From contig JAVCBZ010000026.1 in NCBI GenBank assembly GCA_030765735.1, positions 1 to 37,269 of the forward strand: 37,269 nt of DNA, given 5' to 3'. The stretch is from Candidatus Susulua stagnicola. GTDB taxonomy: Bacteria; Omnitrophota; Gorgyraeia; Duberdicusellales; 4484-171. Of the stretch, positions 1 to 10,603 are shown one piece after another. Under the pieces are notes generated by a model, which saw nothing but the letters and a program-made list of their open reading frames with translations, did not search any database and was not told where the DNA came from. A program made the translations under genes and the position numbers. Each line of letters opens with the position of its first letter. The first letter of the stretch is position 1.

Positions 1-2065
1 CAACCCGCATTTCTCGCGTGATTGGCTTCATCGCAAAAGAAATATATTCGAGCACATCAAACAAATCACTTTTTTCAGCGTTAATTACTTTTTGTAAAGT
101 TATCAATTCATCTAACCCATACCCCGCATCTGCAAGCTTTCCAAGTAATGCCTTACGTGTATCCGGCTTAGACCAGATTCTACGCAGTTCATCTTCGCTT
201 TTAAAAAATTCCGGTAAAACTCCAAACATGGCCTGCAAAAACTCTTCTGCTGAGATTGGCTTACCATCAGCACTCCAAAATGAAGTAGAAATCATATGCT
301 GGATTTCGCGTTCTTTTCCATCACGTAATTTAATCTTAATCTTTTTCTTGGGAGGCTCGGGCGGTTCTGAAGGTTCAGGCGAATCTTTAGGTGATTTTGT
401 CTCTTTTTCTGTTGTTTCATCTATCGGTTCGCCATCCCATTCGGGATCAAGAAAATGATGATACGCATCTACAAAATCATAAATAGTAAAATACTCTTTT
501 CCGTCAAACAACCGTGTTCCACGCCCAATAATTTGCTTAAACTCAATTATGGAGTTAACTGGACGCATTAGTATAATATTACGAATATTACGAGCGTCTA
601 CACCCGTGGATAGCTTTTGTGAAGTAGTCAAAATAGTTGGAACAGTTTTCTCATTATCTTGAAATTCACGCAAATACTGCTCACCCAATGCGCCATCATT
701 GGCGGTTACACGCACGCAGTAATTCGGTTCTTTGCTTTGTTTATACTGATTAACTAAATCCCGCACTGCTAACGCATGATTCTGAGTAGAACAAAAAACA
801 ATGCCCTTTTCGCTTTGGTCGATTTCAGAAAGAAATATCTGTACTCGTTTGGCTTCACGTTCTTTAATTATTATGACCCTATTAAAATCTGGCTCTGTAT
901 AAATTTTTCCCTGCTCTATCTCGCCTTCAATAATCTGATCATCTGAGGTATAGATATAATCGTCTATTGTAGTTTGAATCCGCTTAACCTTAAACGGCGT
1001 CAAGAAACCATCGTTGATGCCCTCTTTGAGTGAATAGATATGCACCGGCTCGCCGAAATAACGATAAGTGTCCACATTATCTTTGCGTCTAGGCGTTGCA
1101 GTTAAACCAAGCTGAACAGCAGGCGAAAAATACTCCATAATGCCACGCCAATTGCCTTCGTCATTTGCACCCCCGCGATGACATTCGTCAATAATGATAA
1201 AGTCAAAATAGTCGTTCGGATATTGACCAAAATACGGAGCAAGGTTGCCATCCTTATCCTTGCCACTCATAAAGGTTTGAAAGATAGTGAAAAAAATGCT
1301 ACCACTGGTTGGGACTCGACCATTTCTACGAATTTCATGAGGCTTAATTCGAGCCAGAGCATCTTCTGGAAATGCTGAAAAGGCATTAAATGCCTGATCC
1401 GCGAGTATATTTCTGTCTGCTAAAAACAAAATCCGTGGCCTACGAGAGCCATCTCGTCTTAAATCCCAGCGTGTCTGAAAAAGTTTCCAAGCTATCTGAA
1501 AAGCAATAAAGGTTTTACCTGTCCCAGTAGCAAGTGTAAGCAATATACGCTGCTCGTTTTCGGCAATGGCAGCCACTGCATTATTGACAGCGATTTCCTG
1601 ATAATAGCGTACATCCTTTGTGCCACCTATATCTTCAAATGGCACCTGATTAAATTTATCTTGCCATTGATTCTGGGCAGCAAAGGTTTTATTCCAAAGT
1701 TCATCCGGCGATGGGAATGCGGTAATCAATCCTTCCTTGCCAGTTTTCATACAAATTTGATAAATCTCTTTACCGTTACTGGAATAAGTCCTATCAAGAT
1801 GAAGCATTCCGGCATAGTTCTTGGCTTGAGCCACACCTTCCCCTACTTTAAGTTCATCGCTTTTCGCTTCAATGACAGCTAGTTTACACCCCTTATAAAC
1901 CAACACATAGTCAGCAATCAAGGGTTTAGCTCTTCCACCACCGGTCTGGATTTTACCAGCAGTGATTTTATATTCCCGAAGGACTTTTGTATCTTCGACT
2001 ACACCCCAACCGCTTTCCTTCAACTTCGGGTCGATATATTCAGCTCTTGTTTCAGCTTCGTTCAT
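1..2065 (-). CDS. hsdR: Type I restriction enzyme R subunit (EcoAI-like), 3' end runs off window
   Basis: Manual translation from ATG at 2065: MNEAETRAEYIDPKL..., nuclease motif ADYVL...IEAK, Walker A ATGTGKT, DECH box, LTAT, QIIGRGTR; ATGA overlap with hsdS stop; absent from ORF track because no stop in window. Confidence 0.95.
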   Translation of the reverse strand, partial: MNEAETRAEYIDPKLKESGWGVVEDTKVLREYKITAGKIQTGGGRAKPLIADYVLVYKGCKLAVIEAKSDELKVGEGVAQAKNYAGMLHLDRTYSSNGKEIYQICMKTGKEGLITAFPSPDELWNKTFAAQNQWQDKFNQVPFEDIGGTKDVRYYQEIAVNNAVAAIAENEQRILLTLATGTGKTFIAFQIAWKLFQTRWDLRRDGSRRPRILFLADRNILADQAFNAFSAFPEDALARIKPHEIRRNGRVPTSGSIFFTIFQTFMSGKDKDGNLAPYFGQYPNDYFDFIIIDECHRGGANDEGNWRGIMEYFSPAVQLGLTATPRRKDNVDTYRYFGEPVHIYSLKEGINDGFLTPFKVKRIQTTIDDYIYTSDDQIIEGEIEQGKIYTEPDFNRVIIIKEREAKRVQIFLSEIDQSEKGIVFCSTQNHALAVRDLVNQYKQSKEPNYCVRVTANDGALGEQYLREFQDNEKTVPTILTTSQKLSTGVDARNIRNIILMRPVNSIIEFKQIIGRGTRLFDGKEYFTIYDFVDAYHHFLDPEWDGEPIDETTEKETKSPKDSPEPSEPPEPPKKKIKIKLRDGKEREIQHMISTSFWSADGKPISAEEFLQAMFGVLPEFFKSEDELRRIWSKPDTRKALLGKLADAGYGLDELITLQKVINAEKSDLFDVLEYISFAMKPITREMRV

Positions 2066-3222
2066 GATTGTGCTCCTGCAAGTTTACCATTAAAAGCTTT
2101 TTGAAGAATTGATTTCTTTAATTCCTCTAGATCTACCAGTTTTTGCTGGCATATGGCTTCAAGCTTTTTAGTTTCTGCGGAAAGCGTATCAAGTTTGCTA
2201 ACGATAGCTTTTTGCTCAAAGAGAGATTTTGGGAATGGCAAATAGTAACTATAAATAAAATCTTTTGAAATTCGTTTATGGCCAACTGCGCCCGTCATTA
2301 ATTTTTTACCCTCTTCTCTAAATTGATTACGTGTTAAAAAATAGTATAAATAATCAGGAATTATTTCACCTTTTGACCGAAAAACTATGTATTCACTTGA
2401 ACCAAACCCAACGCCATTCGTTAAATTGCGTGCAATTCCAATTTTTCCGTTTTCAAAGCAGGGTGTGATTTTAGCAAGCAGCACATCATCATCTGCAAAA
2501 TATGTATAACTGCTAAAGACATCTTTTAATTGTCTTTCTTTTGTGGCGTTTATTTCTTTGGTCAAGATACCCAAATCTTTCATAGGAAGAAATGTAACAG
2601 ATCCAGCATCTTTTAACTTTTCTTTCGTTTCCTTTTTTGGAGGTTTTATCACGCATACTTCTCCCAGAGTTTTTCCTCCCCATTCATCCCCCAAATTAGC
2701 AAAAACGCTTTGCAGATATGTTTCAAACAGCTCACGGGCATTTTGCAAATTCTTTTCAGTATTTCCTTTTGCCTTAGCAATTTTTTCAAAAAGTTCATCC
2801 AAAATCTTCACTATCCGCTTTTGTTCGGGTAGAAGCGGAAGTGGTATGAGAAGCTCTTGAAAATGTCTAATCCTTAATGATTTAGCTGTTGCTCCAACAG
2901 CAACTTGTTCAAAGTATTTATGATCAAAAATTAAGTAATATTCAACAAATCTTATGCTAACACTTTCATCAAAGTTAAAAAGCGCATAAGCTCTTTGATG
3001 AAGATCAAATTTTCCAGAATAATATCTTGGAAAGAATTCTGCTCCTTCTCCCGGAATTATTAAAGCCTTACAATCAAAAAGAAATCGCCTACTTCTTTTT
3101 ACCTTCTTTGATCGGTCAAAAAAAGCGTACTCACCGTTTTCAACTGCCTCGTTAGCGTTAGATTTACCAGTGCTAATTTTGCAAATACTTCCAAGCGTTT
3201 TTGTTTTCCAATTCTTCCTCAT
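2062..3222 (-). CDS. hsdS: Type I RM specificity subunit
   Basis: Two TRDs each followed by conserved P.P...EQK.IV..LD repeats; between hsdM and hsdR. Confidence 0.95.
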   Translation of the reverse strand: MRKNWKTKTLGSICKISTGKSNANEAVENGEYAFFDRSKKVKRSRRFLFDCKALIIPGEGAEFFPRYYSGKFDLHQRAYALFNFDESVSIRFVEYYLIFDHKYFEQVAVGATAKSLRIRHFQELLIPLPLLPEQKRIVKILDELFEKIAKAKGNTEKNLQNARELFETYLQSVFANLGDEWGGKTLGEVCVIKPPKKETKEKLKDAGSVTFLPMKDLGILTKEINATKERQLKDVFSSYTYFADDDVLLAKITPCFENGKIGIARNLTNGVGFGSSEYIVFRSKGEIIPDYLYYFLTRNQFREEGKKLMTGAVGHKRISKDFIYSYYLPFPKSLFEQKAIVSKLDTLSAETKKLEAICQQKLVDLEELKKSILQKAFNGKLAGAQS

Positions 3223-4673
3223 ACCAAATCTCTAATCGTCTTTAAAATATCAACTGCTTCTTTACCCAGTATTTTCATTTCAGCCAATATTTCTTTTGGT
3301 TTTCGCAGAATAGTTTTGTCTTTTTTATTCGGATTTTTCACAGACAAATCAAATGTACCCTTATCAACATCAGCCACGTTTACTGTCCAAGAGTTTTCGG
3401 ATTCTTCTTTTTTCTTCTGCAATTTTACAAACTCTGCCAGATCATTTTCATTAAGCGGATTAGTCTTGCCGAGATTGCGATTAAGATTAAGTTGATAGTA
3501 CCAAATTTTCTTCGTCTTAACCCCTTTATCAAAGAAAAGCACCACAGTCTTCACACCCGCACCGGTAAAAGTACCACCGGGTAAATCCAGAATGGTGTGC
3601 AGATTACAATTTTCTAAAAGCAGTTTTCGTAAACTGGTCGAAGCGTTGTCCGTATTAGAAAGAAATGTATTTTTAATTACAACGCCTGCTCGCCCGCCAG
3701 CCTTAACGATTTTGATAAAGTGTTGAAGGAAAAGAAATGCAGTCTCACCAGTTTTGATTGGAAAGTTTTGCTGAACTTCTTTACGAATCCCCGCACCAAA
3801 AGGTGGATTGGCTAAGACAATATCGTAACGATCTTTTTCCTGAATATCAGTAATGTTTTCTGATAACGTATTAGTATGCACAATATTGGGTGTTTCTATA
3901 CCATGCAAAATCATATTCATTGTACCAATAATGTAAGCAAGAGATTTGATTTCTTTACCGTAAAAGGTTTTTTTCTGCAAAATTTTGGCTTGTTTAGTTG
4001 TTAAGTTCTTATTGGTTTTAAGATATTCAAAGGCTTCGCATAAAAACCCAGCCGAACCTACTGCTCCATCGTAAATTTTATTTCCAATAGTAGGAGCAAC
4101 CACTTCCACAATGGTTTTAATAAGCGGGCGAGGTGTATAATATTCTCCGCCATTTCTGCCTGCGTTGCCCATATTCTTGATTTTGGCTTCATATAAATGC
4201 GACATTTCATGTTTTTCTTTGTGAGCCCTAAACCGAAGTTCATCAATACGATTAATTACTTCTCGTAGATTATACCCGCTTTGAACTTTATTTTTAAGTT
4301 CACTAAAAATTTCACCTATCTTGTATTCAATCGTATCTGCGCTTTCAGCGCTTGCTTTAAACTTTTTAAAGTAGGGGAATAGCTTATGGTCAGCAAAATC
4401 TTTTAAATCGTCTCCAGTAAGTGCCTTGTGGTGATCAAGTTTGCCATCCTTACCTTTAGGAACGGCCCATGTTTCCCATTGATACTCAGGCTTTATTATG
4501 CCTGTATAAGTTTTACCTGATAATTTTGCCGCTGTTTTCTTATCCTTCTCTAGATCATCTAGATATTTCAAAAAAAGAATCCAAGAAGTTTGCTCTACAT
4601 AATCCAGCTCGCTAGAACATCCTGCGTCTTTATGGAGAATATCGTCAATATTTTTAAAAGTTTGTTCAAACAT
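3219..4673 (-). CDS. hsdM: Type I RM N6-adenine methyltransferase (ATG at 4673 preferred; GTG at 4679 alternative)
   Basis: GEYYTPR, motif I YDGAVGSAGF, motif IV NPPF; ATGA overlap with hsdS. Confidence 0.95.
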   Translation of the reverse strand: MFEQTFKNIDDILHKDAGCSSELDYVEQTSWILFLKYLDDLEKDKKTAAKLSGKTYTGIIKPEYQWETWAVPKGKDGKLDHHKALTGDDLKDFADHKLFPYFKKFKASAESADTIEYKIGEIFSELKNKVQSGYNLREVINRIDELRFRAHKEKHEMSHLYEAKIKNMGNAGRNGGEYYTPRPLIKTIVEVVAPTIGNKIYDGAVGSAGFLCEAFEYLKTNKNLTTKQAKILQKKTFYGKEIKSLAYIIGTMNMILHGIETPNIVHTNTLSENITDIQEKDRYDIVLANPPFGAGIRKEVQQNFPIKTGETAFLFLQHFIKIVKAGGRAGVVIKNTFLSNTDNASTSLRKLLLENCNLHTILDLPGGTFTGAGVKTVVLFFDKGVKTKKIWYYQLNLNRNLGKTNPLNENDLAEFVKLQKKKEESENSWTVNVADVDKGTFDLSVKNPNKKDKTILRKPKEILAEMKILGKEAVDILKTIRDLV

Positions 4674-5583
4674 TGGCACTTCTCTTGATAGTAAAGGGTT
4701 TCTTTAATTGAGAGCTTATTATATTATGGCTGTGAAGGTTTAATTTTTTAGAAAAAATCATGATTTCTTTACCTATTTTTGATTGATATGCACTGTGCTG
4801 GATTGTAAATTTTCTTTTGCGCATTTTTGTGTAAAGCTTGCGTATATACGAAACGTCATCATACGTCATAATCCATTTTAACGATGAATCCTGCAAAAAT
4901 TTCCTTAGTTTTTCATGGTCGCTATCTTCGTAGTGGTTAAGATAGAGAAGTTTACCTTTTTGATAATAAGGCGGATCAAGAAAAATAAAATAATTGCTCA
5001 TGTTTTTACATCGTTCTATCTTTTTTAAAAGGCTAATTCCGTCAAGATTATAGACTTTGATTTTATTCTTATATCTCTTAATTCGCTTCAAGCGCTTAAC
5101 AAGCGTGCTTTTAGTAAAACGGACGTCAAGCTTCCAGTCTCCGGATTGATCCATTCCCCCAATTGGACCCCCTTCAATGATCCCCGATCTATTTGTTCTA
5201 TTTAGAAAAAGTGTTGCAAACGCCAATTCATGATCAGAGGACAATGCCCTATTATATATCTCTTTCTGTCTTTTCCATTCCTCGATAGTAATCTTCACTT
5301 CTAGTACTCTTTTTATTAAATATTCACTATCAGAAAGAGCGGTTTTCCAAAAGGCATAAATGGCAGAATCAAAATCATTGATTATAATTCTGTTAACTTG
5401 TCCTGCAAATAATAAGGACAGCGCTGCCCCTGCTCCTCCTGCATATGGTTCAACGAGAATTACTTTACCCTTGTCTTCTTCTGTGAAATTTTTTTCAATT
5501 GTCTTAGCAAAAAACTTTGCAAGACGAGTCTTTCCTCCTGGATACCTAATAGGACTAACAAATTTTAGTTTTGCTTTTTCCAT
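4666..5583 (-). CDS. D12-class (Dam-family) DNA adenine methyltransferase
   Basis: SPIRYPGGK, EPYAGGAG, IIIND, LFLNRTNRSG, DPPYY motifs. Confidence 0.9.
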   Translation of the reverse strand: MEKAKLKFVSPIRYPGGKTRLAKFFAKTIEKNFTEEDKGKVILVEPYAGGAGAALSLLFAGQVNRIIINDFDSAIYAFWKTALSDSEYLIKRVLEVKITIEEWKRQKEIYNRALSSDHELAFATLFLNRTNRSGIIEGGPIGGMDQSGDWKLDVRFTKSTLVKRLKRIKRYKNKIKVYNLDGISLLKKIERCKNMSNYFIFLDPPYYQKGKLLYLNHYEDSDHEKLRKFLQDSSLKWIMTYDDVSYIRKLYTKMRKRKFTIQHSAYQSKIGKEIMIFSKKLNLHSHNIISSQLKKPFTIKRSANV

Positions 5584-5584
5584 T

Positions 5585-6991
5585 CTACGTTTCTTTCTTT
5601 TCAGGAACTGACGATAAAATAAACATAAATAACGGCTTTAACTCATCCCACCCTTGTTGCACAGCCTCTCTATTGCTGAAAAAATAATGGCTATGATTTA
5701 ATTGGTGCATAAAATTAGCAGTATACCCCATCATGCTTACACTACCTTTTGTTTGTTCGATTTTCGTTATAAGATTTTTTAGCGCTTTAAATTTCGAACC
5801 AGCAAGAAGCTTAACTTTTTCATTCCCCTTAAATTCTTCTAAAGCATCCTTTAAAAAGGAGTATTCTCCTTTTTTCTTTATTGCTATCTCATGTAAATCA
5901 AAGAAGGCTTTGAGTGAGCATTCTAAAAAACTCCTTAATAAATCATGCGCAGCATTTGGGAAACCCCTATCATTACTGATGGATATTCTTTCTATCTCTT
6001 TGTACATGCGTTCTATTGCGGGAAATGGAAGGTAAAAATTAATACCCTGAGTATTCAGCTTATTCTTGGTGATTTTAGTTGGTTTAACCGGTACAAAATC
6101 ACTCGCCATAGCTGTTGTTTTGAAGGACAATTTTTTGGGAACAATTTGGTCAATGTACGTTTTTCTCTCTGTACTATCACTAATTTTTTTCCGAGATGTA
6201 ATTATTTTGTCCACAATGTCAGTAATGATAATTGTATAGGCGCGATCAAATTCTTGTGATTTGGGAATTGTTACCTCTCCCGTTTCAGGGTTAAACTGAA
6301 GTCCCATTTTTTCTTGTACATATTTATCTGAATACAATCTTTCCAGGGTTGTAATATCAAAATTTCGCTTATTGTTTATTTTTTTACGCACTTCATCGGA
6401 AAGCTTCGGTAAGGATGTTGCAATCTGATGCATTTCATACATCCTAATATATGCAGGAATATTAACTCCTTTATATCTTTTAATTAAATTTTGAACAGAT
6501 CTACCTTTTTCTTTTTGGGCATAATAAAAATAGGCTCTTCTTAATGCACTCCATGGACGTTTGGTATTTTTTGTATGTTTTGCGGCTAAATACTGCATTG
6601 CCGCTTCTCTGTTGGGTGCAACTCTAACCGTTATGCTAAGAATAGGGCTTCTTTCAAGCATTAATTTTCTAATTTTTTCTTTGTATTTTCGAGGAACATG
6701 AATTGGGTCTATCATTGCTTGCAAAGAGGCCACTCTTCGACTTCCTTCAAAAACAACCCAATTTTTGTTTTCTCTAACAACTACAGGGCTTTCGTCGGGG
6801 AAAAACCCATTTTCATAAATACTGAGAAGAATTTGCATAGCCTTTTCATTAACAAATAAATCTCTAACGATTTCATCTTGCGTTTTGCGTTCCGTCTCTA
6901 GTCGAATATTCTCTGGATCAAGCAAAAGAGAAGCAACCAAGACAGTAATTGGTTTCCATTCTTGCTGATAATTTATAAGTTTCTTTTTCAT
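5585..6991 (-). CDS. ParB/Srx-like N-terminal domain protein with putative HEPN-like C-terminal domain; candidate defence effector
   Basis: LLLDPENIRL...YENGF...PVVV...VVFEGSRRVASL (ParB-like GxRR); C-terminal FPNAAHDLLRSFLE...MHQLNHSH helical region resembling HEPN. Confidence 0.6.
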   Translation of the reverse strand: MKKKLINYQQEWKPITVLVASLLLDPENIRLETERKTQDEIVRDLFVNEKAMQILLSIYENGFFPDESPVVVRENKNWVVFEGSRRVASLQAMIDPIHVPRKYKEKIRKLMLERSPILSITVRVAPNREAAMQYLAAKHTKNTKRPWSALRRAYFYYAQKEKGRSVQNLIKRYKGVNIPAYIRMYEMHQIATSLPKLSDEVRKKINNKRNFDITTLERLYSDKYVQEKMGLQFNPETGEVTIPKSQEFDRAYTIIITDIVDKIITSRKKISDSTERKTYIDQIVPKKLSFKTTAMASDFVPVKPTKITKNKLNTQGINFYLPFPAIERMYKEIERISISNDRGFPNAAHDLLRSFLECSLKAFFDLHEIAIKKKGEYSFLKDALEEFKGNEKVKLLAGSKFKALKNLITKIEQTKGSVSMMGYTANFMHQLNHSHYFFSNREAVQQGWDELKPLFMFILSSVPEKKET

Positions 6992-7050
6992 GATGCTCCT
7001 TTTATTTTACTTTTATTTACCCAAAAGTTCTTATTGTATTTCTCTATCTT

Positions 7051-7245
7051 TTATCTCCCCACTAATTCATCTATCTTAATTTTAAAAGCATTTGCAAGTT
7101 TTGTTAATGTCTCTAGGGTTGGGTTTTTGTTTGACCCCGATTCTATCTTGATAAGAGTGCTGTAGGTAATTCCGGCTTTTTGGGCGAGTTGTTCTTGAGA
7201 CAAATGGTGTTTCTTCCTAAGTTTTTTAATATTTGCGGCGAGCAT
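7051..7245 (-). CDS. XRE-family HTH transcriptional regulator (C-protein-like)
   Basis: IKKLRKKHHLSQEQLAQKAGITYSTLIKIESG..NPTLETL; AGGAG RBS. Confidence 0.9.
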   Translation of the reverse strand: MLAANIKKLRKKHHLSQEQLAQKAGITYSTLIKIESGSNKNPTLETLTKLANAFKIKIDELVGR

Positions 7246-7259
7246 AAAATCTCCTATTT

Positions 7260-8186
7260 CTATTTTATCTTTTCCATAATGCTTAAAATCCCTTTATCAA
7301 GTTGTGAGAAAGCAAACCATTTTTTACCAAGATCTTTTAATGATGCACCAATGTGATATACGACCTGCTTATCAATAATTAAAAACCTATCATGGGATTT
7401 ATTAAATATTTTAATTTCAATCGAATGATATTGCGCGTTATGTTTTTTTAAATCAAGGTGTAATTGTTTCGAAATTTGTTTGGTGAAAATAGTAGCAGAA
7501 ACGCCTTTTTTACGTTTATCAAGTAATGTTAAAACAGATTCATCAATATAATTATCAATCAATATAATAGATTTTTTTGCTTTTTTAATAATCTTTGAAA
7601 CAAAAAGATACGCTTCAAACACTTGTCCGTCAAAAAATATCCCCTGTTTAGGCTGAATATTTTCTTTTTCTAAGGCTTTAAAAACTTTCTCAAATTTTTT
7701 ATTTGTCTCTAGTTTATGCTCTAATTGTTTTTGCTCAACGTTATCAAGCCGTTGAAAAAGAACAGCGTTTGTTTGAATAAAACGACGCATTTGTACAAAA
7801 GCATTCATAATTTGGATACTAATCCTAATCGCTGTGTCACTTTTTAACACAGCAGATAGCATAGCTACCCCTTGTTCAGTAAAAACATAGGGCAAGTATT
7901 TTCGGTGTTTTCCTCTCTCATCTTTTAAGGTCGCAAAATGCGACCTTAAAGAATCATTAGATGCCTCAATTTGTGACATCCATTGATTAAGCTCTTGCTT
8001 TGTTAATTGAAACATAAATTCTTTTGGAAAACGATCAATGTTCCGCTTAACCTGTTCATTAAGTCTTTTTATTTCTACTCTATATAATCCAGCTAAGTCT
8101 CTATCAAACATAATCTGCCGTTTGCGAATTGTATGGATTTTTGATCTAATTTGTTTTTCGGTGGAATTTACTAACTCTTTTTTCAA
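7260..8186 (-). CDS. ORF6N-domain DNA-binding protein with C-terminal PLD-like domain
   Basis: IMFDRDLAGLY...LNEQVKRNIDRFPKEFMFQL...LPYVFTEQGVAMLS (ORF6N); C-terminal IIDNYID...SHDRFLIID...YHIGASLKDLG; TTG start with AGGAG RBS. Confidence 0.85.
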   Translation of the reverse strand: MKKELVNSTEKQIRSKIHTIRKRQIMFDRDLAGLYRVEIKRLNEQVKRNIDRFPKEFMFQLTKQELNQWMSQIEASNDSLRSHFATLKDERGKHRKYLPYVFTEQGVAMLSAVLKSDTAIRISIQIMNAFVQMRRFIQTNAVLFQRLDNVEQKQLEHKLETNKKFEKVFKALEKENIQPKQGIFFDGQVFEAYLFVSKIIKKAKKSIILIDNYIDESVLTLLDKRKKGVSATIFTKQISKQLHLDLKKHNAQYHSIEIKIFNKSHDRFLIIDKQVVYHIGASLKDLGKKWFAFSQLDKGILSIMEKIK

Positions 8187-8387: not shown

Positions 8388-8561
8388 ATGGCTATTAAAC
8401 AGCTAACTAAACATACTAAATCACCTGCTCAGCCAATAAATTTTAATTGGCCTGACAATCCTGCTGTCAAAAATCTGCTGGATGTGATCTCCTCTATTCT
8501 CGCTGAAGAATATGTAGAGATAGCCAAAAAGAACCATGATGTATTCTCAAATGAAAAATAA
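8388..8561 (+). CDS. 57-aa hypothetical protein upstream of recombinase (candidate directionality factor)
   Basis: Manual translation MAIKQLTKHTKSPAQPINFNWPDNPAVKNLLDVISSILAEEYVEIAKKNHDVFSNEK; amphipathic helix; downstream of promoter; too short for the ORF track. Confidence 0.6.
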   Translation: MAIKQLTKHTKSPAQPINFNWPDNPAVKNLLDVISSILAEEYVEIAKKNHDVFSNEK

Positions 8562-8684: not shown

Positions 8685-10397
8685 ATGAAAGTTGCCATAT
8701 ACGCTCGCTATTCTTCTGAAAACCAAAGCGCCAAAAGCATTGACGACCAAATACGCGTATGCAAAGACTATGCCGGAAAAAATAACTTTCTTGTAGAAGA
8801 CGAACACGTCTATGTTGATAAGGCAATTTCAGGGTCTATTGTTGACCGGCCCGGATTGCAGGCTTTGGAAAAGGCTGCCGAGAATAAAGAATTTGATACT
8901 GTGATTGTAGATGACTTATCCCGGATATCACGAAGCAACCATCAAATGTTGACTTTAGTTCTTAAATTCAACTACCTGCAAATTAGAATTATCTCTGTAT
9001 CAGACGGTATCTCTACAGATGATGACAATTCTAAATTAGGCATTCATCTGCGCGGGCTTATGAATGAACTTTATCTTGATGACCTTAAAAAGAAAACCAT
9101 GCGTGGATTAGAAGGCCAGAAAATCCGCGGTTTTAGTGTAGGCGAAAATGTATTTGGCTATTTTACCGAACCGGTCGGCGAGCTAAGGATTGGCAAAAGG
9201 GGTGAAGCAAAGCATGACGGGATGATCCATAAAATAAATCCTGAGCAAGCCGATATAGTAAAAAGGATATTTAATGAGTTCTCCGGAGGTAAAAGCTTAA
9301 GAAAACTTGCCGCATCGCTTAATGAGGACAAAATCCCTACTAAACGCGGGCTTTCCGGTGGTTGGAATATTTCCAGTTTACGCAGAATCTTACAAAATAA
9401 AAAATATATTGGTATCTGGATATGGAAAACAACCAAAACCGTCCGAGATCCTCTGACCGGGAAAAAGAAAATTGTTTCGCGTCCCGAAAAGGAGCATTTA
9501 TCCACACGCAGAAAAGATTTAATAATTATTGAGCAGGATATTTGGGATAAAACCAGGGAAAGGTGGTCTAAAATGGTAGGCGCCTATCCTCTATCTAAAA
9601 AGGCAAGAGCAAACGGCCAAAAACAAAAAAGTTATGTTCATTGTGCCCCAACTCATCTTTTTTCGGGAACAATGAAATGCCACTGTTGTAACGGGCCAAT
9701 TGTTCTTGTCAGCGGAAAAGGCGACGGTTACTATGGTTGTTATAATTTTCGCCGTAAAACCTGTACTAATAAATTATTAGTATCCCGTAAGCGTGTAGAA
9801 AAAACCATCCTCACTGCGCTACAAGAAAAGGTTTTGACTCTTAATAATATAAACTACATTTATAAGAATCTGGAAACCCAAATAGCAAAAAGATTAAACA
9901 ATAACCCTGAGGCCATAAAGAAGAAAAGAGCCCAGCATGATAAGCTTTCTTTAGAAATGCAGAATTACTTGAATTACATTAAGTTAGGTAACTTTTCAAA
10001 GGCCGTATCCGAAGCATTAAAGCACTGTGAATCGAGGTTTGAGCTGTTAACAGAAGAAATAAAATCCCTGGAATTCCAGAAGAGCAACACCTTTAAATCC
10101 CCTCCCCTAGAGTGGGTGAAACACCGTCTAGAACGTTTACAGGAAACACTTAGCAAGAAGGCCACCTCAGCAGCCCTTGTCTTAAAAGGGCTCCTATCCC
10201 CCATATCCCTTGAGCCTGTATTAAGCCCTGATAATGACTTCTATTCAGTAGTTAATGCTCAGGAAGGAAGGTTTAAACCCTATTACGTGGCCCATATAAA
10301 AGCACAAACCCTTGCTCTTCTCGATGAGAAGAACAAGGGTTCGAATTGGTTTCAGTGGCGGGGTCGATGGGATTCGAACCCACGATCACCTGCGTGA
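8685..10397 (+). CDS. Large serine recombinase (integrase)
   Basis: YARYSS catalytic Ser, DDLSRISR, recombinase domain, zinc ribbon CHCC...YYGC...C, coiled coil. Confidence 0.95.
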   Translation: MKVAIYARYSSENQSAKSIDDQIRVCKDYAGKNNFLVEDEHVYVDKAISGSIVDRPGLQALEKAAENKEFDTVIVDDLSRISRSNHQMLTLVLKFNYLQIRIISVSDGISTDDDNSKLGIHLRGLMNELYLDDLKKKTMRGLEGQKIRGFSVGENVFGYFTEPVGELRIGKRGEAKHDGMIHKINPEQADIVKRIFNEFSGGKSLRKLAASLNEDKIPTKRGLSGGWNISSLRRILQNKKYIGIWIWKTTKTVRDPLTGKKKIVSRPEKEHLSTRRKDLIIIEQDIWDKTRERWSKMVGAYPLSKKARANGQKQKSYVHCAPTHLFSGTMKCHCCNGPIVLVSGKGDGYYGCYNFRRKTCTNKLLVSRKRVEKTILTALQEKVLTLNNINYIYKNLETQIAKRLNNNPEAIKKKRAQHDKLSLEMQNYLNYIKLGNFSKAVSEALKHCESRFELLTEEIKSLEFQKSNTFKSPPLEWVKHRLERLQETLSKKATSAALVLKGLLSPISLEPVLSPDNDFYSVVNAQEGRFKPYYVAHIKAQTLALLDEKNKGSNWFQWRGRWDSNPRSPA

Positions 10398-10434
10398 CAG
10401 GCAGGGGACTTAAGCCAGACTAATCGACGACCCC
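10356..10434 (-). tRNA. tRNA-Asp(GTC), CCA encoded
   Basis: Cloverleaf: acceptor GGGGTCG/CGACCCC, anticodon arm CCTGC-CTGTCAC-GCAGG, T loop TTCGAAT, ends GCCA. Confidence 0.95.
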
Positions 10435-10529: not shown

Positions 10530-10603
10530 TGGGCGATACAGGACTTGAACCTGTGACCCCTACCATGTCAAGGTAGTACTCTAGCCAACTGAGCTAATCG
10601 CCC
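10530..10603 (-). tRNA. tRNA-Val(GAC)
   Basis: GGGCGAT/ATCGCCC acceptor, CTACC-TTGACAT-GGTAG anticodon arm; no encoded CCA. Confidence 0.95.

Follow-up and report, generated by a model that had tools for sequence, protein, structure and literature searches.

A large serine integrase with its attachment site inside its own reading frame, and the island that it probably placed at a tRNA-Asp gene of Candidatus Susulua stagnicola

Serine integrases are the main tools for the insertion of large DNA, and descriptions of their natural targets usually name protein-coding or intergenic sites. The locus described here lies on a 37,269-bp contig of Candidatus Susulua stagnicola (C11; JAVCBZ010000026.1, forward strand) from the GenBank assembly GCA_030765735.1 (G000; 1.1 Mb in 108 contigs). 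The entire contig was analyzed and is referred to as the window. It contains a gene for a large serine recombinase (LSR), int, whose reading frame enters a tRNA-Asp gene of the opposite strand at its 3′ end. The comparisons reported below indicate, with a probability of about 0.8, that the window holds attR, the right end of an integrative cargo island that its own LSR put into the sole tRNA-Asp gene, at the 3′ end. The feature had been pointed out in an earlier note made from the letters of the window. It is real, and the note read it correctly for the most part; its dyad and crossover position were corrected, and it was extended to a family-wide rule and to a state-dependent tail of the integrase.

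The phage-type large serine integrases (Listeria A118/LI, Bxb1 and phiC31) have the same three-domain architecture as Int, and their attP sites are likewise short and imperfectly palindromic, with few bases in common with attB. They also have in common with Int a motif that lies 5 bp nearer to the centre in the attB half-site than in attP, as described in passages of Rutherford et al. (2013). Unlike the phage-type enzymes, Int appears to target the 3′ end of tRNA or transfer-messenger RNA (tmRNA) genes, its entire attP codes for part of the integrase, and the outer motif is present in the B′ half of attB only.

For the islands in the tmRNA gene of Dehalococcoides, passages of McMurdie et al. 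(2011; PMC3146451) propose a CcrB-like serine recombinase, DsiB, and give a 20-bp ssrA repeat. As described there, these islands are similar to the present ones in their cargo without transfer genes, their tandem arrays beside the tmRNA gene and a recombinase of ~540 aa at the edge, and one clade of the present integrase family is likewise located at tmRNA genes (5 loci). They differ in that the insertion point lies in the T-loop and a second, small serine recombinase is involved, whereas a 7-bp repeat and no DsiB/DsiA gene pair were found here; the open reading frame (ORF) list of the window contains no second serine recombinase adjoining int. The same passages, by whose description alone DsiB was compared, do not mention an att site in the integrase ORF.

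Tyrosine-integrase elements offer a further comparison. According to sections of PMC4383910, Islander-class islands have the same tRNA/tmRNA target class, restoration of the tRNA 3′ end and layout, but their enzymes belong to a different superfamily and their tRNA-gene repeat is long, versus 7 bp here. In the SSV-type "suicidal" tyrosine integrases, the recombination site likewise lies within the integrase gene and integration splits the gene. Parts of a review (PMC8371274) describe them as exclusive to archaea and their genes as broken into nonfunctional parts, unlike that of the bacterial serine integrase studied here, from which integration removes no more than 67 aa at the C-terminus, with all catalytic and site-binding domains retained. 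The tycheposons of Prochlorococcus, in excerpts of bioRxiv 10.1101/2020.12.28.424599, are likewise tandem cargo elements beside tRNA/tmRNA genes with decayed remnants; nearly all of them use tyrosine recombinases, in contrast to the serine integrase here, and a large serine recombinase is present in 27 of 937 elements. The word "tRNA" occurs 0 times in the main text of an extensive LSR survey from 2022 (PMC10083194). The literature covered, which did not extend to subscription journals and supplements, yielded no description of the present integrase family and none of a serine-integrase ORF that contains an att site.

Attachment sites and crossover position

Int has 570 aa and ends in WRGRWDSNPRSPA (ORF list; coordinates of the window features are given in Table 1). 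Pfam matches to Resolvase (PF00239; E = 4.3e-29; residues 3 to 149), to Recombinase (PF07508; E = 3.1e-20) and then to the zinc ribbon Zn_ribbon_recom (PF13408; E = 1.2e-7) give Int the architecture of a large serine recombinase, in agreement with its earlier assignment to the serine integrases. All three domains are intact in this integrated copy; by sequence, solved structures match the catalytic domain only. R8, Y9 and S10 and the cysteines C332, C335, C352 and C360 were invariant in an alignment of 27 integrase sequences (A1), and S10 is presumably the serine nucleophile, as in resolvase.

The ORF list and ARAGORN confirmed that int has no stop codon before the tRNA gene. The final 13 codons and the stop (10356-10397) are the antisense of tRNA-Asp, and the TGA (10395-10397), located in the anticodon loop, covers two anticodon bases and the base 3′ of the anticodon. 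The final 6 nt of the tRNA are provided by the P arm of the island. The genes for tRNA-Val, -Leu and -Cys come after tRNA-Asp (ARAGORN), and a census of the whole assembly found 38 tRNA genes, with this one as the only tRNA-Asp gene.

The 46 bp ending at the int-tRNA junction (10317-10362) recurred with 1 mismatch at positions 5041-5086 of another contig of the same genome, C44, in a k-mer search. The C44 copy continues not into a tRNA but into the mirror of the island motif. The result is a contiguous attP (C44 5063-5108), a 46-bp imperfect palindrome composed of GTTCGAATTGGTT, 20 bp and AACCAATTCGAAC, whose half-sites mirror each other at 20 of 23 positions and whose centre corresponds to 10361|10362 of the window. 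The P arm of attP includes GGTTCGAATTGG (10338-10349; codons G-S-N-W), which occurs once in the 1.1-Mb genome.

Both island ends were located in two relatives, G001 and G002, whose integrases are 90 to 91% identical to that of the window. Their attL consists of chromosomal flank, TGGCGG and the P′ arm, with the P′ arm 14,283 bp (G001) and 16,288 bp (G002) upstream of the integrase-tRNA junction (attR). In a genome of the same genus, G004, the orthologous flank directly abuts an intact tRNA-Asp gene, which represents the empty attB. Alignment of the four site types showed that the core TGGCGGG, corresponding to tRNA nt 76 to 70 (CCA, the discriminator base and the first three bases of the acceptor stem), is the only sequence common to attP, attB, attL and attR. 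The far junction is therefore without a long tRNA duplication. The earlier note had named such a duplication as evidence against its proposal, and in G001 and G002 the repeat between attL and attR was 7 bp only, with no long displaced tRNA fragment. The empty site in G004 confines the crossover to 10356-10362, and together with the 7-bp repeat in the two relatives this upholds the proposed crossover at the tRNA 3′ end. An island-carried tRNA was ruled out, since the empty site holds the same tRNA cluster.

In the window's own genome, C44 is orthologous flank up to position 4277, indicating that the island extends across C44 and C11, which are separated by a gap. One Logan contig, from run X13, carries C44 5011-5040, with a short int remnant and the P arm joined directly to tRNA-Asp, and continues to window position 10558. 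This allele lacks the island with the same exact ends, indicating a presence/absence polymorphism. It comes from a comparison of the locus with Logan contigs, not reads, in which the covered parts were interpreted. Excision, the state before insertion or a deletion between the 46-bp repeats could each account for it. At the far flank, C44 4272-4287 consists of 16 nt of the tRNA-Asp 3′ end. This fragment is not at a P′ junction; it lies 117 nt before an older, degenerate flank/P′ junction (~4405), and the 117 nt hold a hairpin-like inverted repeat. It may be the scar of the integration of an earlier, different element. It was rejected as the attL of the island, being without a P′ arm, and P′-type junctions were found at 4405 and 5086.

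By comparison of the sites, the functional dyad centre is placed at 10361|10362 (tRNA nt 71|70), inside the acceptor stem. The motif TTCGAA lies 17 to 22 bp from this centre in the P arm (10340-10345) and in the P′ arm of C44 and also of locus L043. The T-loop TTCGAA of tRNA-Asp (10373-10378) lies 12 to 17 bp from it, a 5-bp inward shift compared with P and P′. In passages of Rutherford et al. (2013), the zinc-ribbon-domain (ZD) motif of the Listeria integrase is 5 bp nearer to the centre in attB than in attP, modelled as a shift of half-site bp 16-24 to 11-19. By analogy, TTCGAA at 10340-10345 is proposed to be the ZD motif, with the zinc-ribbon domain as its probable reader. The T-loop TTCGAA sits at the position expected of the ZD motif in attB, which is consistent with the T-loop recognition suggested earlier.

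These sites can be arranged into a probable mechanism. In the excised form, the entire attP of ~46 bp would lie within the integrase ORF. Recombination would take place inside TGGCGGG, probably with GG at 10361-10362 as the central dinucleotide, and the P arm of the island would rebuild the tRNA 3′ end on integration. The zinc-ribbon domain may read TTCGAA at the attP spacing (17 to 22 bp) in both island arms and the T-loop TTCGAA at the attB spacing (12 to 17 bp) in the target. Since the distance between the T-loop and the 3′ end is the same in every tRNA, this would explain the presence of relatives in tRNA-Ser, tRNA-Asp and tmRNA genes. The sequence comparison itself establishes the four types of att site, the empty site, the 5-bp offset, the conservation of the P arm as DNA and the conserved in-frame tail described below; the pairing of protein domains with motifs, the precise cut and any role of the tail are inferred.

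The integrase family and its targets

The integrase has 697 homologues at E ≤ 0.001, the best 120 of which are 60 to 91% identical to it and 556 to 644 aa long. The named homologues are mostly from Omnitrophota metagenome-assembled genomes (MAGs), and members were also found in Chlamydiota and other phyla. The C-termini of the homologues diverge directly after a conserved G-S-N-W-x-x-W-R, and by inspection, without a tally, most of the tails hold D/E-S-N-P, which is the T-loop read in antisense.

Junctions were surveyed in 81 sources (the window and 80 genome loci), of which 49 had a recognizable C-terminal motif. In 42 of these 49 junctions, the int ORF runs into a minus-strand tRNA or tmRNA gene, and the register is fixed: the tRNA or tmRNA 3′ end begins 2 to 5 nt before the W-R codons end. 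The targets were tRNA-Ser in 34 cases (anticodons GGA, TGA, GCT and CGA), tmRNA in 5 and tRNA-Asp in 3. T-arm-like tRNA sequence that was not called by ARAGORN followed in three further junctions, two of them at contig ends; three had other right arms (L043, which is attP-like, L044 and L062), and in one (L019) an attP-like site was followed by a second int 3′ remnant and then by tRNA-Ser. The 12-base GGTTCGAATTGG was essentially invariant across the junctions. The third positions of its G, S and N codons were 100% conserved in the 49 junctions, versus 0.41 to 0.94 at other third positions, indicating a constraint on the DNA itself. The C44 attP, the family junctions and this invariant P arm bear out the view that the att site lies in the integrase's own 3′ end.

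A quick IQ-TREE phylogeny of 47 integrases, in which 12 of 44 inner branches were well supported, placed the tRNA-Asp integrases in a monophyletic clade (support 100), sister to a tmRNA clade (support 91). The tRNA-Ser isoacceptors were mixed across the tree, and integrases 83 to 87% identical to each other were located at different tRNA-Ser genes. The family as a whole therefore has a genuine breadth of targets, as do the tRNA-Ser clades. The earlier suggestion that the enzyme may target several tRNA species was thus supported for the family (tRNA-Ser with four anticodons, tRNA-Asp and tmRNA) but not for the clade of the window's own integrase, whose junctions were at tRNA-Asp only (3/3). The base after the centre also differed: G was found in all 3 tRNA-Asp junctions and in the sites of C44, G001 and G002, and A in the tRNA-Ser junctions and in 25 attP sites from metagenomes.

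This widespread integrase family thus lands on the ends of tRNA-Ser, tRNA-Asp and tmRNA genes with a 7-bp core, and the conserved T-loop appears to serve it as one recognition motif. It offers a testable case of an attB half-site that is a universal feature of RNA genes, and its natural enzymes with related yet distinct targets form a set for studying changes of specificity.

Metagenomes were scanned for the pattern spaced as in attP, which returned 68 stretches, with 32 sense-oriented sites. The centres of these 32 sites were G|A (25 sites), G|T (6) and G|G (1). A second class of attP (L043, L149, L172, L177, L183, L188 and L191) has T after the core, a different inner sequence of P′ and 11 to 37 extra codons without the helix-turn-helix (HTH) tail described below. 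No integrated junction with T after the core was seen among the junctions examined. An 11,249-bp metagenome contig (L159) carries three att-like sites in the same orientation (36-81, 1695-1740 and 9428-9473) and two copies of a 68-aa ORF, with no full integrase between the sites; it resembles an array of decayed copies or of mini-elements that lack an integrase.

Several individual loci deserve mention. In L044, int is followed by ~10 nt of tRNA-Ser and then by unrelated DNA. L186 resembles L019 in having a full-length integrase, an attP-like site and, 64 to ~115 nt on, a second short int remnant before tRNA-Ser; in both, the tRNA-proximal element has shrunk to little beyond its two arms. A decayed P-arm-like remnant abuts tRNA-Asp in L100 (G019), and a tRNA-Asp-clade integrase is located at tRNA-Asp in L113, from a genome of another genus of the same family (G013). 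L027 and L069 hold an integrase at 61% identity from a MAG labelled as an Aenigmatarchaeota archaeon, which could reflect a binning error or a cross-domain host. Neither the attP pattern (N{28}) nor the attR pattern (N{23}) had a match in scans of a viral contig collection (0 each), and nothing ties the element to phages.

The integrase C terminus and alternative readings

Integration would split the integrase ORF after codon 558, leaving an integrated gene that ends in meaningless tRNA-antisense codons. When the int frame was read through the C44 attP, it remained open for 67 further codons. In this frame, G-S-N-W-x-x-W-R comes from the P arm and x-x-x-Q-P-I-R-T from the P′ arm. The tail segment follows attL in G001 and G002 at 86 to 88% identity, at a distance of 14 to 16 kb from int. 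In these genomes, residue 41 of its 67 is the first to offer a canonical in-frame start. In the int frame, dN/dS was 0.14 to 0.28 for the tail versus 0.07 to 0.085 for the int body. Among the 25 sense-oriented G|A attP sites, 20 open at least 55 codons in the int frame, with the other two frames mostly short. In an alignment of 20 tails, I-R-T (encoded by the P′ arm) and one glycine are invariant.

The Pfam matches of the tails are weak: at E ≤ 0.1, HTH_23 matched 17, Sigma70_r4_2 matched 14 and the resolvase domain HTH_7 matched 8 of the 20, and the HTH matches of the window genome's own tail were below the curated cut-offs (e.g., 17.7 versus 25.7 bits for Sigma70_r4_2). An AlphaFold model of the tail had three helices and a mean pLDDT of 79, with a block-mean pLDDT of >90 over residues 41-80. 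On these grounds, the tail is predicted to be a tri-helical HTH domain. The top sub-threshold Foldseek rows were assorted HTH DNA-binding proteins, including resolvases and IstA. The earlier note had guessed that the C-terminus differs between the integrated and excised states. The comparison goes beyond this guess: the two states would encode different integrase proteins, and the 67 residues added in the circular form would have an HTH fold. By its place in the integrase ORF, the att site would yield two forms of the protein, each tied to a state of the DNA, which makes a simple system for studying directionality.

Full-length integrases with an HTH tail were retrieved at two loci, L146 (P0040; 625 aa; 11 cluster members) and L163 (P0121; 619 aa). 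A tail profile search among longer proteins returned 2 proteins; its sensitivity is low, and it gives no count of fused forms. L183, L186 and L188 encode full-length integrases with a short tail. A 68-aa ORF downstream of the tail was found in 14 loci (tblastn). The 57-aa ORF directly upstream of int matched no Pfam family and is a candidate partner, either a regulator or a directionality factor. Across attP, the circle would carry the 57-aa ORF, int with its tail and the 68-aa ORF in one direction.

C44 holds two tandem copies of the left-end module of the island, each consisting of an HTH tail segment and a 68- to 73-aa ORF (copy 1, 4405-4614 and 4618-4839; copy 2, 5086-5289 and 5292-5498). 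In copy 1, a 1-nt deletion results in a stand-alone 69-aa HTH ORF (4405-4614), whose ATG is formed by the tRNA end. Between the copies, C44 4958-5040 (−) resembles, by eye, what we take to be the C-terminal end of a transposase.

The earlier note had set the symmetry centre at the discriminator base, 10359, and an integrated att site that is a true inverted repeat, GGGTTCGAAT / ATTCGAACCC, centred and cut at this base is very unlikely. The 10-bp inverted repeat is perfect and has no second occurrence in the window, where GGGTTCGAAT was found only at 10337-10346 (+) and 10372-10381 (−). This compares with a chance expectation of 0.05, and 0 of 100 shuffles reached 2 matches, with the caveat that 6 of the 10 bases, TTCGAA, are self-complementary. 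The pair midpoint is indeed 10359, which also lies inside the 7-bp core common to the four site types. However, 10361|10362, 2.5 bp to the right, is the axis about which the C44 attP is symmetrical and the P′ arms of G001 and G002 reflect the P arm, and the base after that centre varies with the target (G at tRNA-Asp, A at tRNA-Ser). A hybrid attR is expected to be asymmetric, and the displacement of 2.5 bp is half of the 5-bp offset between attP and attB; the midpoint falls at 10359 because one attP-type half-site (17-22) was joined to one attB-type half-site (12-17). The midpoint was therefore retained but not the dyad centre, and the T-arm was given up as the mirror partner of the island motif: by sequence, the P arm has its true partner in the P′ arm, located at the opposite end of the island. 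That some other recombinase placed the island, e.g., a tyrosine integrase in the unseen left part, with the LSR as cargo or a resolvase, is extremely unlikely. Such an enzyme might be sought in the part of the island that extends off the contig, and the 16-nt tRNA-Asp fragment at the far flank is of the kind that tyrosine integrases leave. Yet the complete islands of G001 and G002 carry the LSR at their tRNA end with the 7-bp repeat only, 42 of the 49 junctions, from several phyla, have the int 3′ end and the tRNA in one fixed register, and no tyrosine-recombinase family was matched by the window ORFs scanned with Pfam, the left part of the island lying outside the window.

The 67-codon HTH frame could also be a separate small gene or a relic that is only incidentally continuous with int, in which case there would be no state-dependent isoform. 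The stand-alone ORF in C44 copy 1, the short tails of 11 to 37 codons at the six G|T-centre attP sites and the small number of full-length fusions on record are in line with this explanation. It is nevertheless considered improbable: at 20 of the 25 G|A attP sites the frame stays open and in phase with int, the first 40 tail residues are conserved although the first start in G001 and G002 is residue 41, and the two full-length fusions belong to integrases just 36 to 63% identical to that of the window. A broader proposal, in which the integration state is encoded in the integrase, the full-length HTH form comes only from the excised circle and the reading of the T-loop opens any tRNA or tmRNA gene to the enzyme, is speculative and, taken as a whole, rather doubtful. 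If it holds, the tailed Int would be made with the 68-aa ORF on one transcript and the integrated copy would make the tail-less enzyme. The tailed isoform would then promote integration and the tail-less one excision, or the two would turn the int operon on and off, which would provide a built-in directionality or commitment switch not solely dependent on a separate factor. A few inner bases of the half-site, together with the one base that follows the centre, would adjust the choice of target.

Several observations weigh against the reading of an LSR-placed island with a state-dependent integrase. TTCGAA is missing from its expected place in the chromosomal B arm (G004 and site alignment), and attB therefore appears to be one-sided. 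None of 24 whole metagenome contigs had the terminal direct repeats of a circle. The tRNA-Asp fragment at C44 4272-4287 is not needed by the model. Most of the attP sites in assemblies have just 17 to 100 int codons upstream, as in C44, which suggests that attP sites with a short int upstream are decayed tandem arrays at a tRNA rather than free circles. The tail model had no Foldseek match in the PDB at E ≤ 0.001, and just two full-length fused proteins were retrieved. Moreover, the integrases of L183 and L188, with G|T-centre attP sites, are 93% and 96% identical to integrases at tRNA-Ser(GCT), whose junctions have A after the centre versus T in these attP sites; either the targets of the G|T class differ or the cut lies 1 to 2 nt to the left.

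Island cargo and a second recombinase

The island cargo in the window includes a type I restriction-modification system (Table 1), and the islands of the relatives G001 and G002 have the same int module with different cargo. These islands move restriction-modification and other cargo among uncultured bacteria with small genomes.

Table 1. Features of the window
Feature	Position	Strand	Basis or remark
Island cargo	2..8186	-	Pfam and ORF list; island extends past the left contig end
hsdR, type I restriction-modification	2-2065	-	Pfam
hsdS, type I restriction-modification	2062-3222	-	Pfam
hsdM, type I restriction-modification	3219-4679	-	Pfam
D12-class adenine methyltransferase	4666-5583	-	Pfam
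468-aa cargo protein, without Pfam family	5585-6991	-	between methyltransferase and HTH_3 regulator
HTH_3 regulator	7051-7245	-	Pfam
ORF6N-domain protein	7260-8186	-	Pfam
57-aa ORF directly upstream of int	8388..8561	+	kept with integrase in 74/157 loci (tblastn)
int, LSR, integrated-state form	8685..10397	+	codons 1-558 = conserved enzyme; 12 tRNA-antisense codons and the stop after them
P arm, attP-type half-site inside int ORF	10338..10361	+	mirrors P′ arm in C44, G001, G002
Core TGGCGGG	10356..10362	.	alignment of four site types; attL/attR of G001, G002; G004 empty site
tRNA-Asp(GTC), intact	10356..10434	-	ARAGORN; CCA encoded
B′ arm, attB-type half-site	10362..10385	+	acceptor 3′ strand and T-arm of tRNA-Asp

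The genome contains a second, distant LSR on contig C92 (21123-21863), in a 555-aa open frame with 32% identity to Int over residues 1-256.

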